64,000 bases of DNA from Escherichia coli 042. Lineage in GTDB: Bacteria > Pseudomonadota > Gammaproteobacteria > Enterobacterales > Enterobacteriaceae. Where the stretch lies: assembly GCF_000027125.1 (NCBI RefSeq), contig NC_017626.1. One strand, given 5' to 3'. Positions 3,550 through 14,007 of this stretch are shown here, piece by piece. Position numbers and translations under genes: made by a program. The notes beneath the pieces were generated by a model that searched no databases, was not told where the DNA came from, and saw nothing but the letters and a program-made list of their open reading frames with translations. The stretch's first letter is position 1. Each line of letters opens with the position of its first letter.

Positions 3550-7614
<4,065 letters not shown>

Positions 7615-7806: not shown

Positions 7807-8766
7807 ATGACCGAATCAACAACCTCCTCCCCGCATGATGCGGTGTTTAAAACCTTTATGTTCACACCCGAAACCGCTCGGGATTTTCTGGAAATACATC
7901 TACCAGAGCCGCTGCGCAAGCTTTGCAACCTGCAAACTTTACGCCTGGAACCCACCAGCTTTATTGAAAAAAGTTTACGCGCTTACTACTCGGATGTTTT
8001 GTGGTCTGTGGAAACCAGCGACGGTGAAGGCTATATCTACTGCGTGATTGAACATCAAAGCTCTGCAGAAAAGAATATGGCTTTTCGGCTAATGCGCTAT
8101 GCCACTGCCGCCATGCAGCGTCACCTGGATAAAGGCTATGACAGAGTTCCGCTGGTGGTGCCATTGCTGTTTTATCATGGCGAAACCTCGCCCTACCCGT
8201 ACTCACTCAACTGGCTGGATGAGTTTGACGATCCGCAACTTGCCCGGCAGTTGTACACCGAAGCTTTTCCGTTGGTGGATATCACCATCGTACCTGACGA
8301 TGAGATCATGCAACATCGGCGTATAGCTCTGCTGGAACTGATTCAAAAGCATATTCGCGACCGCGATTTAATCGGTATGGTCGACAGGATCACCACGCTT
8401 TTGGTTAGAGGCTTCACTAATGACAGCCAGCTACAAACGCTGTTTAATTATCTGCTGCAATGCGGCGATACCTCCCGTTTCACCCGCTTTATTCAGGAGA
8501 TTGCCGAACGTTCACCACTACAAAAGGAGAGATTAATGACTATTGCTGAACGGCTGCGGCAGGAAGGACATCAAATTGGCTGGCAGGAAGGTAAAATTGA
8601 AGGTTGGCAGGAGGGGAAATTGGAGGGGTTGCAGAAAGGCAAAGTAGAAGGTATGCATGAACAAGCCATTAAAATTGCCTTGCGCATGCTGGAACAGGGC
8701 TTTGAACGTGAGATTGTGCTGGCGACAACCCAACTCACTGATGCTGATATTCCGAACGGTCATTAA
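7807..8766 (+). CDS. yfaD: Rpn-family recombination-promoting nuclease (PD-(D/E)XK, transposase_31-like)
   Basis: 319-aa ORF with the conserved N-terminal HDAVFK motif and a repetitive EGK-rich C-terminal module. Confidence 0.85.
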
Positions 8767-8980
8767 AAGGAGAGATTAATGACTATTGCTGAACGGCTAC
8801 GGCAGGAAGGACATCAAATTGGCTGGCAGGAGGGTAAATTAGAAGGTTTGCAGGAAGGCATGCATGAACAAGCCATTAAAATTGCTTTGCGCATGCTGGA
8901 ACAGGGCATTGATCGTGACCTGGTGCTCGCGGCCACCCAGCTAAGCGAAGCCGATCTGGCAGCGAATAACCACTAATTAA
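8522..8980 (+). repeat. tandem direct duplication (about 215-245 bp units) spanning the yfaD 3' end and ypaA
   Basis: Copy 1 (about 8522-8764) and copy 2 (about 8765-8980) both begin AAAAGGAGAGATTAATGACTATTGCTGAACGGCT. Copy 1 carries an extra internal [16 protein letters not shown] sub-repeat. Confidence 0.85.
8779..8976 (+). CDS. ypaA: small protein duplicating the Rpn C-terminal domain
   Basis: 65-aa ORF preceded by AAGGAG 7 nt upstream of the ATG; near-identical to the last 76 codons of yfaD. Confidence 0.7.
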   Translation: MTIAERLRQEGHQIGWQEGKLEGLQEGMHEQAIKIALRMLEQGIDRDLVLAATQLSEADLAANNH

Positions 8981-9016
8981 CACAGGCCCACAGCCGATCC
9001 CCATGGGCCTTTGATA

Positions 9017-9820
9017 TCAATAACTACCTTTTATGCGTGGCCCATTTTTGCCTGATTTAAACATCGCCAGTCGTTGATCCAGGGCATCGCTGTAGAGCAT
9101 CGTGTCAACGCCAACAGCGACAAAGTTCGCTCCCCACGCCAGGCATTGCTGCGCCATATCAGGAGCCACAGCCAGAAAACCAGCCGCTTTACCCGCAGCA
9201 CGGATCCGCCGAATGCTGGTTTCAATAATTCGCTGCACTTCCGGGTGCCCGGCGTTATCCGGGTAGCCCAACGAGGCAGAAAGATCCGCAGGTCCAATAA
9301 ACACGCCGTCAATCCCTTCGACGTCGAGGATTTCGTCCAGGTTATCCAGTGCTGTTTTACTTTCCACCTGCACCAACAGACAAAGCGAATCGTTGACTTG
9401 CGCCATGTAATTCTCAATGCGTCCCCAGCGCGCAGCCCGTGCCACACTGGCCCCGACACCACGCTCACCGTAGGGAGGATAGCGCGTGGCAGACACCACC
9501 TGACGTGCCTGATCGGCAGTATCGACCATCGGGATCAGTAGAGTTTGCGCGCCAATATCCAGGACTTGTTTAATCAGCGACTTACTGCCTTCCACCGGAC
9601 GGATCACGGGTTGGCTGGCATAGGGCGCTACCGCCTGTAGCTGGTGATAAAGATCCTGAATGGTGTTTGGCGCGTGCTCCCCGTCAATCAGCAACCAGTC
9701 ATAACCGGAGGTGGCGGCAATTTCTGCCATATAAGAAGTAGTCGAGCTTAACCACAGACCAATTTGCACTTCGCCCTTGCGTAAACGTTCTTTAAAGGGA
9801 TTGGTTAATAATGCGTTCAT
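9017..9820 (-). CDS. rhmA: 2-keto-3-deoxy-L-rhamnonate aldolase
   Basis: Start taken at [13 protein letters not shown] (267 aa); HpcH/HpaI aldolase family, recognised as RhmA/YfaU. Confidence 0.9.
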
Positions 9821-9836
9821 GGTGTTCCTTAACCTA

Positions 9837-11078
9837 TTAATGATGTGCCACGTCGGTCTGCGCAACAGTGCGATTTACACGCAGAGTGAAAATAATCAGC
9901 GAACCGATGACCGCCACCGCTGCCAGCGTCAGTAATCCCGCCGCATCGCTGGCAAACAACGTTTCTGCTTTCACGCGCAGGATCGGGGCAATAAACCCAC
10001 CCACTGCACCAAACAGGTTTACAAAACCAATCCCCGCCGCCAGCGCCGTACCGGAAAGCAGTTGTGTCGGCATCGTCCAGAACACCGGCTGCACGGCAAT
10101 AAACCCGATGGCTGCAACACACAGCGCTACGATCGCCAGTACTGGAGAAAGCAGCCCGGAGAGACCAATACCAATGCCTGCCGCCAGTAATGTCAGCGCC
10201 GCGACATTACGCCGTTCGCCGGTTTTATCGGAATAGCGCGGAATAAGCCAGGTCCCAAACAAGGCCGCGACCCACGGAATGGCGGTGACCACCGACGCCG
10301 TAAAGCCCACTTTTGTCCCCAACAATGCAGCAACCTGCGTCGGCAGGAAGAAAATTAATCCGTAAACCGCCACCTGAATGGTCAGGTAGATAATCGCCAG
10401 TTGCCAGACTCGCCCATTACGCAGCGCATCGCTCAGTCGAGAAGTCACTTTCTGTTGTTCTTCACTTGCCAGTTGGTTGATAAGCAACGTTTTTTCTTCT
10501 TTACTCAGAAAACGTGCCTGCTCCGGCGTGTCATCAAGCCAAAAGAATGTGAATACCCCAGCGCCGACTGCCAGCAATCCTTCAATCACAAACATCCAGA
10601 ACCAGCCGGGATGCCCCATAAATCCATGCATCTCCAGCAGCGCGCCGGAAAGCGGTGATCCCAGTGTTAACGCCAACGGTGCGCCCATATAGAACAGCCC
10701 CATAATGCTGGCGCGATTACGCTGCGGAAACCATTGCGAGGTGAGATAAATCATACCAGGGAAGAACCCGGCCTCCGCAGCACCAAGCAGAGTGCGAACG
10801 ATCAGAAATTTCGCTTCAGTATCGGCCCATGCCATGGCTGCCGAAAGAAATCCCCACAGCAGTGTTGTCGTACCAATCCAGGTTCTGGCCCCCAGTTTGC
10901 GCATCAAAAGATTCGCCGGAACACCCAGAAACGCATATACCACAAAGAAAATGCCTGCTCCCAGCGCATAAGCTTCATTACTCAGCCCGGTATCAATCTG
11001 GTAGGTTTGTTTGGCAAAACCGATATTCGAACGGTCGAGAAACGCCAGCACATACAGCGCCAACTTGACATCCTCCAC
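9837..11078 (-). CDS. rhmT: L-rhamnonate MFS transporter, N-terminally altered or truncated by the adjacent IS
   Basis: 413-aa ORF with an MFS fold recognised as RhmT/YfaV. Its only available start is a GTG at 11076-11078, inside the IS terminal hairpin; native RhmT is recalled as about 429 aa. Confidence 0.7.
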
Positions 11079-11094
11079 GCCCTGAAGAACGTGG
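11073..11094 (+). repeat. IS terminal imperfect palindrome (tnpB-proximal end)
   Basis: TCCACG-CCCTGAAGAA-CGTGGA, 14 bp beyond the tnpB stop. Confidence 0.55.
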
Positions 11095-11107
11095 ATCCCT
11101 GCTACGT

Positions 11108-12316
11108 TCAGGCTGTCGCCTGAATCATTTCGGTGGGTTCCTGCTTCAACGAGCGGCCTGACTGCACCATCTCTCCACAGGCAAGAACGGCGTGCCCCGC
11201 CGCTAAAATGTTACGAGCGCCATTTACATCGGCGTTCGCTGTATATCCACATACCTGGCATCTGAATTGACTTTGTGACAGGCGATTTTCTTTCGCAGTA
11301 TGACCACAGCACGCGCAACGCTGGCTTGTGTACGCTGGCGGAACAGCAAGCAACTGACCGCCACTCCAGAGCTGCTTGTACTCAAGCTGGCGGCGCATTT
11401 CATACCAGCCCTGATCCAGTATCGAACGGTTTAAACCTGATTTTGCCCGGACATTGCGCCCCGGCTGGCTGAGCGTACCCGCTGCTGACTTTGACATGTT
11501 GCTGACCTTCAAATCCTCAATGACTATCATTGCGTGGTTTTTGCTGACGGTCGTTGTGACTTTGTGAAGGTAGTCCCTGCGGATATTTGCGATACGGGAA
11601 TGCAGTCGCTGTATTTTGCGTTTCTGCTTCTGCCAGTTGTTGCTGAATTTGACCCTGCGGCTTAACTGTCGCTGAAGTCTCGCCAGCTTCTTCTGGTTTT
11701 TCTGAAAACTGTTTACAGGCTCAAAGACTGTGCCATCTGACAGCGTGGCGAGTTTAGCCACGCCAGCATCCAGCCCGACCATTGATGCTGAAGGGTGAAC
11801 CGGAGTTGATACTTCACTTTCTGTCTGAATACTGATGTACCACTTACCGCAGGACTGGCTGACAGTGACATTTTTTACAACACCCGTGACCTGACGGCTG
11901 TTCCGGTAGCGCATCCAGCCCAGTTTCGGCAGAAAAATACGGCTGTTTTCCTGATCGAGCTTAACGCCCTGCGGATAGCGGAATGCATCATTCTGTCCCC
12001 GCTTTTTGAATCGGGGAAAAGCAGCCCGATTCTGGAAGAAGTTTTTGTAAGCCCGCTCAAGGTCTTTCAGTGACTGTTGCAATGGCTGTGAGGGCGAATC
12101 TTTAAGCCATTGCGTTTCAGTGGCGTTTTTCCACTCAACCAGCCAGGAAGCCATTTTCCCGTAAGGGATGTATTTATTACCGGCCTCATGATTCTCATTC
12201 TGAAGCGCCAGAGCGCGATTGAAAACGAAACGACATGCGCCTGCGAAGCGCCTCATTTCACACTCCTGTTGACCACCTGGTCTTAACTGGAATTTAAATG
12301 CCTGTAATCGTTTCAC
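11108..12316 (-). CDS. tnpB: TnpB (OrfB) RuvC-like RNA-guided nuclease of the IS200/IS605 family
   Basis: 402 aa with RuvC-I GLDAGV, RuvC-II IVIEDL, Ruv[12 protein letters not shown] and a zinc finger CACCGH...CQVCG. Confidence 0.9.
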
Positions 12317-12323
12317 AGGTCAA

Positions 12324-12929
12324 ATGATACTTTGGTCTATGAAAAAAGAAACCGATATCCGGCGTGGAAGGCATTGTGTTTTCCTGATGCATGTTCACCT
12401 GGTCTTTGTCACCAAATACCGACGCCAGATTTTTGACCATGACGCGACAGAAAAACTACGCACTTACTTTTCAAATGTATGTGCTGATTTTGAAGCTGAA
12501 CTGGTTGAAATGGATGGCGAACCAGATCACGTCCATTTGTTAATTAACTATCCTCCCAAACTGGCGATATCCAGTCTGGTAAACAGCCTCAAAGGCGTAT
12601 CGGGTAGGTTACTGCGACGAGATCGACCAGATATTGCAGTCAGGTATTACTACAAAGGCGTTTTGTGGAGTCCTGGCTATTTTGCCAGTAGCTGCGGAGG
12701 TGCGCCAATATCCGTCATCCGCCAATACATTGAACAACAGCAAACACCTGGTCAGGTGGAAAACCGCGCCTTATATCCCCGCCCTGAAGGACGGGGTTTT
12801 ACAGCGCACTGGATAAAGTCATGGACTCAACAACCTCAATCCAGCCATGCTCACTGGCGATGTCCTGGCCGTTTAACCAACGGCGCAGCATATTCAGTGC
12901 CATCATTGCGCACACTTCCTGACGGATAG
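12324..12929 (+). CDS. tnpA: IS200-type Y1 (HUH) transposase TnpA; annotated ORF is abnormally long at the 3' end
   Basis: HUH motif HVHLL and the C-terminal WSPGYFASSCGGAPISVIRQYIEQ motif. The ORF reads past the terminal hairpin into the yfaY-antisense flank (201 aa against a typical 140-155 aa). Confidence 0.75.
   Translation: MILWSMKKETDIRRGRHCVFLMHVHLVFVTKYRRQIFDHDATEKLRTYFSNVCADFEAELVEMDGEPDHVHLLINYPPKLAISSLVNSLKGVSGRLLRRDRPDIAVRYYYKGVLWSPGYFASSCGGAPISVIRQYIEQQQTPGQVENRALYPRPEGRGFTAHWIKSWTQQPQSSHAHWRCPGRLTNGAAYSVPSLRTLPDG
12777..12796 (+). repeat. IS terminal imperfect palindrome (tnpA-proximal end)
   Basis: CCCCG-CCCTGAAGGA-CGGGG, sharing the GCCCTGAAG loop with the hairpin at 11073-11094. 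Confidence 0.55.
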
Positions 12930-14007
12930 CCAGGCTGTAGCGCGTAGTGCTGAAACGCACACGCAGAGCGAAAGTGCCGTCTGGCGTGGCTAGCGCAAAG
13001 TTGAGATGTTCGTTCTCGAAACCAGAAACAGCCAGTGCCAGCCCGGCAAAATGGTTGGCCCGCCGTTCTGTAATCCAGTGCGCAGTTTGCGCCAGGGTTT
13101 CCTCCTGTGAAGGAACCACTTCACACGCCAGCAATGGAGCACCTGCGCGAGAAAGTTGCAAAGCCAATAAACCACCGGTGAATTGCTCGCTCAACGTCAG
13201 GCTGAACTGGCGGTTTTGCAATTCGCGGCTGATCTGCGAGGGCAGTCCTTCGGTACCTTCGAAAATCACGCTCTGTCCGGCAACACGTTTAACGTCCAGC
13301 CACAGTTTTTCCATCGCCTGTTTCTCGCTTGCCGGTCCGGTGAGTTTCAGTTCGATAATCGGCATAGAAGAGCGATAGCCCATTGTTACCCCCGGCGGCA
13401 GTTGCAGGGTGTCCAGGCTTTGTGCCAGATCGCTTTCCGAACGACCAAATGTAGTCAAACGCAGACAAACCGGCGGCTGCGGTAAAGAAAAACGCTCGCG
13501 CAGGCGCGGCAGGATTTCGTGCTCGACCATCACCTTAAATTCTGACGGTACGCCGGGGGTAAAGAACATCAGGCAACGATTAAGCTGCACGGCAAAACCA
13601 CAGGCGGTGCCTACCGGGTTATTGATAAATTCAGCACTGGCAGGTAGCTCCGCTTGTTTACGGTTGCTCGGTGTCATTACTCGTCCACGTTCGTGGAAAT
13701 AGCGTTCCATCTCTTTGAGCCAGGCCTCATGCAGCACCAGGCCTTCACCTTTTGCTGTTGCAGCGGCGAGTGCGCTTAAATCATCACTGGTCGGCCCCAG
13801 CCCGCCGTTAACGATCAGCACATCGGCGTGCTGACTCCGTTCGCGAAGAATGGTCACTAAGTCATCAAGGTTATCTCCCACCGTATTGCGGCGAGATAAT
13901 GGCAACCCCTGATGAAAGAAAAAATCGGCCAGCCAGGCAGCGTTAGTGTCAACGATTTGCCCGTGTAACACTTCATCCCCGGTGGATAGCATTTCCACTT
14001 TTAACAT
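12799..14007 (-). CDS. yfaY: CinA-like (competence/damage-inducible) protein
   Basis: 402-aa ORF starting MLKVEMLSTGDEVLHGQIVDTNAAW (MoCF-binding CinA N-terminal domain); recognised as YfaY. Confidence 0.85.
   Translation of the reverse strand: MLKVEMLSTGDEVLHGQIVDTNAAWLADFFFHQGLPLSRRNTVGDNLDDLVTILRERSQHADVLIVNGGLGPTSDDLSALAAATAKGEGLVLHEAWLKEMERYFHERGRVMTPSNRKQAELPASAEFINNPVGTACGFAVQLNRCLMFFTPGVPSEFKVMVEHEILPRLRERFSLPQPPVCLRLTTFGRSESDLAQSLDTLQLPPGVTMGYRSSMPIIELKLTGPASEKQAMEKLWLDVKRVAGQSVIFEGTEGLPSQISRELQNRQFSLTLSEQFTGGLLALQLSRAGAPLLACEVVPSQEETLAQTAHWITERRANHFAGLALAVSGFENEHLNFALATPDGTFALRVRFSTTRYSLAIRQEVCAMMALNMLRRWLNGQDIASEHGWIEVVESMTLSSAL

Follow-up and report, generated by a model that had tools for sequence, protein, structure and literature searches.

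IS609 right-end hairpin beside a 5'-truncated rhmT remnant in Escherichia coli 042, with a probably incidental in-frame GTG

Results

The window analysed here is a 64,000-nucleotide stretch of the Escherichia coli 042 chromosome in which the genes run in the order glpC, rpnE, rhmA (yfaU), rhmT (yfaV), an insertion sequence, yfaY and yfaZ. By its sequence the element is IS609, a known E. coli insertion sequence of the IS200/IS605 family. It spans 1,748 bp (11065-12812, minus strand), with its left end (LE) at 12812, its right end (RE) at 11065 and its active top strand corresponding to the window minus strand. The K-12 annotation 'insertion sequence:IS609' is of equal length, and six other E. 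coli copies from six different loci, 97-98.5% identical to the window copy, align exactly over 11065-12812 and diverge directly outside. The right ends of all aligned copies finish in GGAGGATGTCAA before the sequence diverges. TTAT lies directly 5' of LE on the minus strand in 7/7 copies at seven loci, while the RE flanks differ from copy to copy and none of the seven has a target duplication. Both ends carry subterminal hairpins and lack terminal inverted repeats. The right-end cleavage tetranucleotide TCAA occupies 11065-11068 (minus), with the IS/rhmT junction between 11065 and 11064. At the other end the TTAT at 12813-12816 (minus), target and left cleavage tetranucleotide, belongs to native yfaY, whose sequence at this point is GACTTTAT|CTGTCTGA in a strain free of the IS.

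The element carries divergent tnpB and tnpA genes. tnpB (11108-12316, minus) encodes an apparently intact InsQ-type RNA-guided nuclease of 402 aa in the same orientation as the rhmT remnant (rhmT'). Its product has Pfam matches to HTH_OrfB_IS605, OrfB_IS605 and Cas12f1-like_TNB, matches ISDra2 TnpB structures with E=7.8e-55, and has GLDAG, IEDL and NADVNGA motifs and two CxxC pairs legible in the translation. The tnpA ORF (12324-12929, plus) encodes a Y1 HUH transposase (Pfam Y1_Tnp E=4.9e-42, residues 18-139) with HVHLL and YIEQQ motifs. Its frame meets no stop before the IS ends and runs through LE into yfaY antisense, its stop position reading CAG in the window copy against TAG in a copy annotated as intact. 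Most IS609 copies likewise lack a tnpA stop within the IS, and PGAP labels the window tnpA partial.

Alignment with K-12 RhmT, which at 429 aa has the length that the preliminary description had given, places the rhmT breakpoint at window position 11064. Contiguous K-12 homology covers 8647-11064 at 97.1% identity, breaks off at 11064 after the G that closes rhmT codon 21, and restarts at 12812, in the final codons of yfaY. Relative to K-12, 2,347 bp between these points are absent, with IS609 in their place. The missing segment takes in rhmT codons 1-21 together with their AAGGAG ribosome-binding site, the genes rhmD and yfaX/rhmR, the intergenic DNA between rhmR and yfaY, and 7 nt from the yfaY 3' end. 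The rhmR-rhmD-rhmT-rhmA operon context is thus not kept: rhmD and rhmR (yfaX) are missing, as is the stretch upstream of rhmR that presumably contained the operon promoter. This loss had not figured in the preliminary description. What is left of rhmT (9837-11064, minus) starts with the final base of codon 21 and continues through codons 22-429 to the stop. Because the IS replaces these 2,347 bp, rhmT' is a 5'-truncated remnant. Downstream, rhmA (9017-9820, minus) encodes an intact aldolase according to the PGAP annotation of the 100%-identical strain 118UI (NZ_CP032515.1). On the other side yfaY (12799-14007, minus) has acquired an IS-derived 3' end, terminating in TLSSAL* where K-12 has TLSV*, and is annotated by PGAP as intact.

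The 413-codon ORF is a chimera, as had been proposed, in which M-E-D-V and two bases of the following K codon come from the IS. The native N-terminus is not retained. RhmT codons 1-21, encoding MSTALLDAVVKKNRVRLIPFM, are swapped for IS sequence, which removes a 16-residue cytoplasmic tail containing four K/R and about 5 of the roughly 19 residues of the first transmembrane segment (TM1). The suggestion that this segment is probably missing or replaced thus goes too far: 17 TM1 residues, the Asp-Arg (D-R) motif among them, are kept, and the product matches Pfam MFS_1 almost completely (E=1.7e-48, profile positions 4-347, compared with 2-347 for K-12). By Kyte-Doolittle values and charge counts only, the best TM1 hydropathy drops from 1.48 to 1.12-1.31 and the anchor of four K/R is replaced by a net-acidic EDVK. 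A PDB sequence search returned DgoT and sialin homologues in an alignment whose displayed part did not reach TM1.

The palindrome next to the junction reads, on the plus strand, TCCACG (11074-11079), CCCTGAAGAA and CGTGGA (11090-11095). It had been described as a 6-bp palindrome around a 10-nt loop. The letters and coordinates stand; its size does not, as the segment 11074-11095 (minus) folds, both as DNA and as RNA, into a 9-bp stem UCCACGUUC/GGGCGUGGA closed by a UUCA tetraloop, two of the pairs on the transcribed minus strand being G.U. The 6-bp palindrome alone is within chance, because 38 short inverted repeats lie within 2.2 kb. The hairpin is nevertheless genuine, since it is conserved in all IS609 copies, has a twin at LE and covaries. 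These same observations bear out its identification as an IS terminal hairpin and, to judge from the aligned copies, it is the right-end subterminal hairpin of IS609. The LE hairpin (12777-12796, minus) has the form CCCCGUCC UUCA GGGCGGGG, with the same loop as RE, and its stem position 3 is a compensatory C-G where the RE stem has A-T. Read in the 8-bp register of the LE stem, the RE stem has its foot at 11075, 10 nt from the predicted cleavage point; at LE the TTAT lies 16 nt from the hairpin foot (counted by hand from the sequence). By analogy with related elements, the single-stranded RE hairpin is predicted to be the structure bound by the Y1 transposase TnpA.

The RE hairpin forms the end of a longer predicted structure. 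A candidate omega-RNA scaffold (11065-11215, minus) overlaps the tnpB 3' end and RE, with a minimum free energy of -58 kcal/mol (z=-2.2). Its covariation was assessed in 9 relatives of 77-96% identity that include Klebsiella, Salmonella and divergent E. coli plasmid copies. Paired cells amount to 92.3% over the scaffold, against 37-45% with partners slid by 1-3 columns, and to 95% in the RE hairpin; only 9 related sequences were compared, and both percentages are inflated by the structure having been taken from the window sequence. Eight scaffold pairs have changed on both sides, one RE pair covaries through AU, UG, CG and GU, and the scaffold covariation score was reached by 0/500 shuffles. 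A scan against Rfam gave no match at the gathering score; the sub-threshold matches were RAGATH-18 (29.5 against 44.9) and HgcC (20.1 against 50) at the scaffold and sot0042 (15.6 against 88) at the LE hairpin. In TnpB systems the tnpB 3' end and RE form the omega-RNA scaffold, and about 16 nt past RE serve as the guide. The structured RNA is most likely such a TnpB guide (omega) RNA, with the RE hairpin as its last stem. Its predicted guide, assigned from its place directly 3' of RE, would be GTTGGCGCTGTATGTG (11049-11064, minus), covering rhmT codons 21-27. Gomes-Filho et al. noted an 'RE-like' hairpin with a UUCA tetraloop both in HgcC and in transcripts from the tnpB 3' end; sense transcripts of the latter kind were reported from E. 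coli K-12 RNA-seq (PMC4615843).

The GTG at 11076-11078 (minus), from which the 413-aa product would be read, lies in the 3' arm of the hairpin at the coordinates and with the sequence originally given, and is the first ATG, GTG or TTG of the 413-codon frame (9837-11078, minus). Since the first stop met upstream in the rhmT frame is a TAA at 11211-11213, this GTG is one of several possible starts. RefSeq/PGAP annotates yfaV (9837-11111) from a CTG at 11109-11111 (minus; 424 aa), which overlaps the tnpB TGA stop as CTGA. A TTG at 11061-11063 (minus; 408 aa), native codon 22 and the first whole codon past the IS, lies 8 nt downstream of an invariant GGAGG (11072-11076, minus). Predicted anti-Shine-Dalgarno duplexes amount to -3.1 kcal/mol for the GTG, -2.9 kcal/mol for the CTG and -9.3 kcal/mol for the TTG, which has the best Shine-Dalgarno support of the three. 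The 424-, 413- and 408-aa products can all be found among public records, and at least 1,000 contigs carry each of them.

It had been proposed that rhmT keeps an open frame by using this GTG. The comparison of IS609 copies argues against that view. The codon occurs in 7/7 aligned E. coli right ends, reading outward in each, and it opens an outward ORF of 16-87 codons at 6/6 other copies fetched; its Shine-Dalgarno support is weak. Its middle T is paired in the stem (A-T; pair counts AU4/UG2/CG1/GU1), and in three relatives, two Klebsiella copies and Salmonella RM11065, GTG has become GGG and the pairing base has changed too. Because the codon changes when its stem partner changes, the GTG appears to be a by-product of the hairpin and not a conserved start. 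Its being in frame with rhmT is probably incidental, a one-in-three outcome of where the element landed. Both the GTG and the GGAGG sit within conserved helices of the RNA fold. Some translation of rhmT' is plausible, given the predicted ideal spacing of GGAGG from TTG and the co-oriented tnpB without a terminator.

tnpB, rhmT' and rhmA all share one orientation. A crude scan of the minus strand found no sigma-70-like promoter inside the IS or between tnpB and rhmT', and a scan of the same kind found no terminator between these two genes. Among 5,426 complete E. coli genomes the RE-rhmT junction is present in 189 and the LE-yfaY junction in 187. Two carriers in an evenly spaced sample of the ranking are 100.0% identical over 3,884 bp, which indicates that the allele is young or clonal; with sampled carriers this close to identical, the open frame does not speak for selection. 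Among genomes free of the IS the closest, at 99.3% identity, have a complete operon. In E. coli the rhm locus has been inactivated independently in several lineages.

Discussion

Taking the anatomy, the breakpoints, the conservation and covariation of the hairpin and the population frequency as observed here, we explain the locus as an IS609 right-end hairpin next to a remnant rhmT' with an incidental in-frame GTG, a reading to which we give a probability of roughly 80%. In this explanation IS609 lies between yfaY and rhmT, where it replaces 2,347 bp. TnpA would bind the RE hairpin as single-stranded DNA and cut 10 nt away, after TCAA; as RNA, the same hairpin would be the last stem of the guide RNA associated with tnpB. 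The remnant is 5'-truncated and has lost its ribosome-binding site and upstream region as well as its regulator and partner dehydratase, and any rhmT' mRNA would probably arise by read-through from tnpB, in competition with guide-RNA formation. The feature is real yet ordinary: IS609, end hairpins of this type and the truncation of genes by insertion sequences are already known, and rhmT' is a gene remnant. With rhmD, rhmR and the DNA upstream of rhmR gone, the L-rhamnonate pathway is broken whichever start is chosen, and a working pathway is excluded. We infer that rhmT' has lost its transporter function; a product that keeps 408/429 residues and nearly the whole of MFS_1 may still be partly functional.

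The closest counterpart of the window element is the IS609 copy of K-12 at the ydcL-ydcO locus (insQ/tnpB and a yncK/tnpA remnant), which shares its length of 1,748 bp, 97.9% identity, the divergent tnpA/tnpB layout, both end hairpins, the TTAT flank and the GTCAA end. The window copy differs in its locus, in a C>T change in the RE stem that turns C-G into U.G, in two changes within the first 11 nt of LE, and in being tied to a 2.3-kb deletion instead of a simple insertion. IS608 of Helicobacter pylori also has subterminal hairpins, TCAA at RE and insertion 3' of TTAx. In the IS608 model RE cleavage occurs 10 nt 3' of the hairpin foot, the same RE spacing as here, and the LE spacing is 19 nt (PMC3201880), compared with 16 nt in the window element. 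The 4-nt guide 5' of the LE hairpin shows a parallel change, from AAAG (target TTAC) in IS608 to AAAA (target TTAT) in the window IS609. IS609 differs further in its divergent, IS605-like arrangement of tnpA and tnpB. The predicted RNA resembles TnpB omega-RNAs, sotRNAs and HgcC in extending over the tnpB 3' end and RE, with a UUCA-tetraloop hairpin last and flank-derived sequence beyond it, although as a prediction it scores below gathering for both HgcC and RAGATH-18. Finally, other IS-truncated genes with fusion ORFs have likewise lost the native start, gained an in-frame start from the IS and been given different starts by different pipelines. The IS end found here differs from theirs in being a single-strand transposon hairpin and putative guide-RNA scaffold, and not an inverted repeat with an outward -35 box.

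How the 2,347 bp were lost admits two routes. Both K-12 breakpoints fall exactly 3' of TTAT, as CCGTTTAT|GTTGGCG in rhmT and GAC(C/T)TTAT|C in yfaY. As TTAT accounts for no more than 0.73% of the positions along the same strand, a random deletion endpoint there is unlikely, and both junctions look transposase-made. One possible, if rather doubtful, route is that TnpA itself made the deletion junction. IS609 would have inserted first at the yfaY TTAT, after which RE (TCAA|) would have been joined to GTTGGCG at a downstream TTAT| in rhmT on the same strand, with the LE guide acting in trans, the intervening 2.3 kb freed as a circle and the omega-RNA guide re-programmed to rhmT. Besides the breakpoints, and TTAT being the target in 7/7 copies, this route draws on chemistry that would agree, by analogy, with the excision and integration steps published for IS608 (PMC3201880), and on the top strand lying on the lagging-strand template, as judged by a GC skew of -0.04. 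Against it, two IS609 insertions in the same orientation followed by homologous recombination would give an identical product, and this second route fits the data. The tnpA of the window copy is moreover without a stop codon, and a non-exhaustive literature search found no published precedent for flanking deletions by IS200/IS605 elements. Full-length matches to single-insertion progenitors of either kind, RE followed by native yfaY or the native rhmT 5' end followed by LE, were absent from the 5,426 complete genomes. Because no progenitor junction was found, the two routes cannot be told apart. Searches of the literature on IS609 with TnpB, on yfaV/rhmT and on IS608/TnpA flanking deletions found nothing on an IS609-rhmT junction.

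An extension of the TnpA route concerns the nuclease. In K-12 rhmT, TTTAT stands directly 5' of a sequence identical to the predicted guide, that is, TTAT plus a perfect match. After a TnpA-catalysed deletion, the TnpB guide GTTGGCGCTGTATGTG would match wild-type rhmT beside a TTAT TAM, and wild-type rhm DNA entering the cell could then be cleaved by the nuclease, fixing the deletion in place. We regard this scenario as quite improbable. If true, it would be a natural transposon-made deletion protected by the element's own RNA-guided nuclease.

It is unlikely that rhmT' gives rise to a functional chimeric transporter. Here tnpB read-through would be translated from a signal within the IS, be it GGAGG with the TTG at 11063, the GTG at 11078 or the CTG at 11111 coupled to the tnpB stop, and the N-terminally altered RhmT would still insert into the membrane and transport a sugar acid. 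The co-orientation of tnpB and rhmT' with no terminator-like site between them would allow such read-through, GGAGG 8 nt from the TTG makes a strong duplex, and PGAP picked the CTGA stop/start overlap. A near-complete MFS_1 domain, the 17 retained TM1 residues with their D-R motif and the intact rhmA point in the same direction. However, the basic cytoplasmic anchor has given way to a net-acidic one with a less hydrophobic TM1, and GGAGG and the GTG are buried in conserved RNA helices. L-rhamnonate, if imported, would have no route of breakdown now that rhmD and rhmR are missing, and with the sampled carriers near-identical an intact frame needs no selection. Even for wild-type RhmT no substrate has been assigned, and the protein aggregates when purified (bioRxiv 10.64898/2026.05.20.726482).

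That full-length RhmT natively begins at the IS junction has next to no chance of being correct: beyond the existence of public 413-aa annotations nothing speaks for it, whereas K-12 and several other rhmT sequences run 21 codons further upstream in unrelated DNA, K-12 rhmT has an AAGGAG ribosome-binding site, and every comparison has IS609 upstream of 11064.

For annotation, the preferred reading, a 5'-truncated remnant beside an IS609 end, means that such a remnant has entered the databases as an intact 'MFS transporter/yfaV', in versions of 424, 413 and 408 aa that differ in their N-termini. Wherever IS609 is inserted in frame, the outward GTG and GGAGG of its right end will give rise to false or ambiguous gene starts. 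The biological interest is modest and lies in both deletion endpoints being IS609 target sites and in the independent inactivation of the rhm locus in several E. coli lineages.

Discussion

The 3' end of yfaY (window 12799-12817) is chimeric with the left end of IS609, which supplies the final yfaY codons and the stop, so that the protein ends in ...TLSSAL* here as opposed to ...TLSV* in K-12; this chimeric gene nevertheless carries an "intact" annotation. K-12 ydcO is a further host gene with an end defined by IS609, its 3' end overlapping the right end of the element by 4 nt (K-12 locus L010, 5906-5909). The tnpA ORF of the window copy (12324-12929) has CAG at the position of the TAG stop present in L004, the sole copy annotated as intact. 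Most IS609 copies thus have a transposase frame that continues past the left-end hairpin into the flank, and in the window copy this extends the frame by 58 residues, antisense to yfaY.

The 8-mer GCGCTGTA occurs both within the 13 nt that open the left end of the window copy, CCAGTGCGCTGTA (12800-12812), and in the rhmT sequence adjoining the right end on the outside, GTTGGCGCTGTAT (11052-11064). Other IS609 copies read CCGGTGCGCCGTA in the left end and match at 7 of 8 nucleotides, the full match arising from one of the two private left-end changes of the window copy. The resemblance is probably due to chance.

IS609-like right ends are also common on Klebsiella plasmids, with 77-84% identity (e.g. 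Klebsiella L011 and L012; also Salmonella L013). The right-end search matched 1,120 Klebsiella records, and the matches listed are mostly IncF-type conjugative plasmids. Several of the plasmid matches are unannotated or tagged 'hypothetical' or 'virulence factor'. Elsewhere in the window, in the rpnE/ypaA region (7807-8976), rpnE encodes 319 aa compared with 299 aa in K-12, and its C-terminus is repeated by short duplicated segments (QEGK-type repeats) and by a 65-aa ORF.

Other E. coli lineages show independent inactivation of the rhm locus. Strain 13P477T (L009, NZ_CP019273.1, 3780-3850) carries an IS-free deletion joining yfaX' to rhmT' with a 12-nt overlap. Genome-comparison rows H129, H135, H157 and H158 include strains with IS1203 or IS1A inside the yfaV-yfaY locus, where yfaV is annotated as two pieces, and strains with additional deletion alleles. 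The predicted TnpB guide of the window copy (11049-11064), together with its TTAT TAM, perfectly matches wild-type K-12 rhmT (K-12 locus L002, about 7076-7095). If the TnpB nuclease is active, it would be programmed against the intact rhmT allele.
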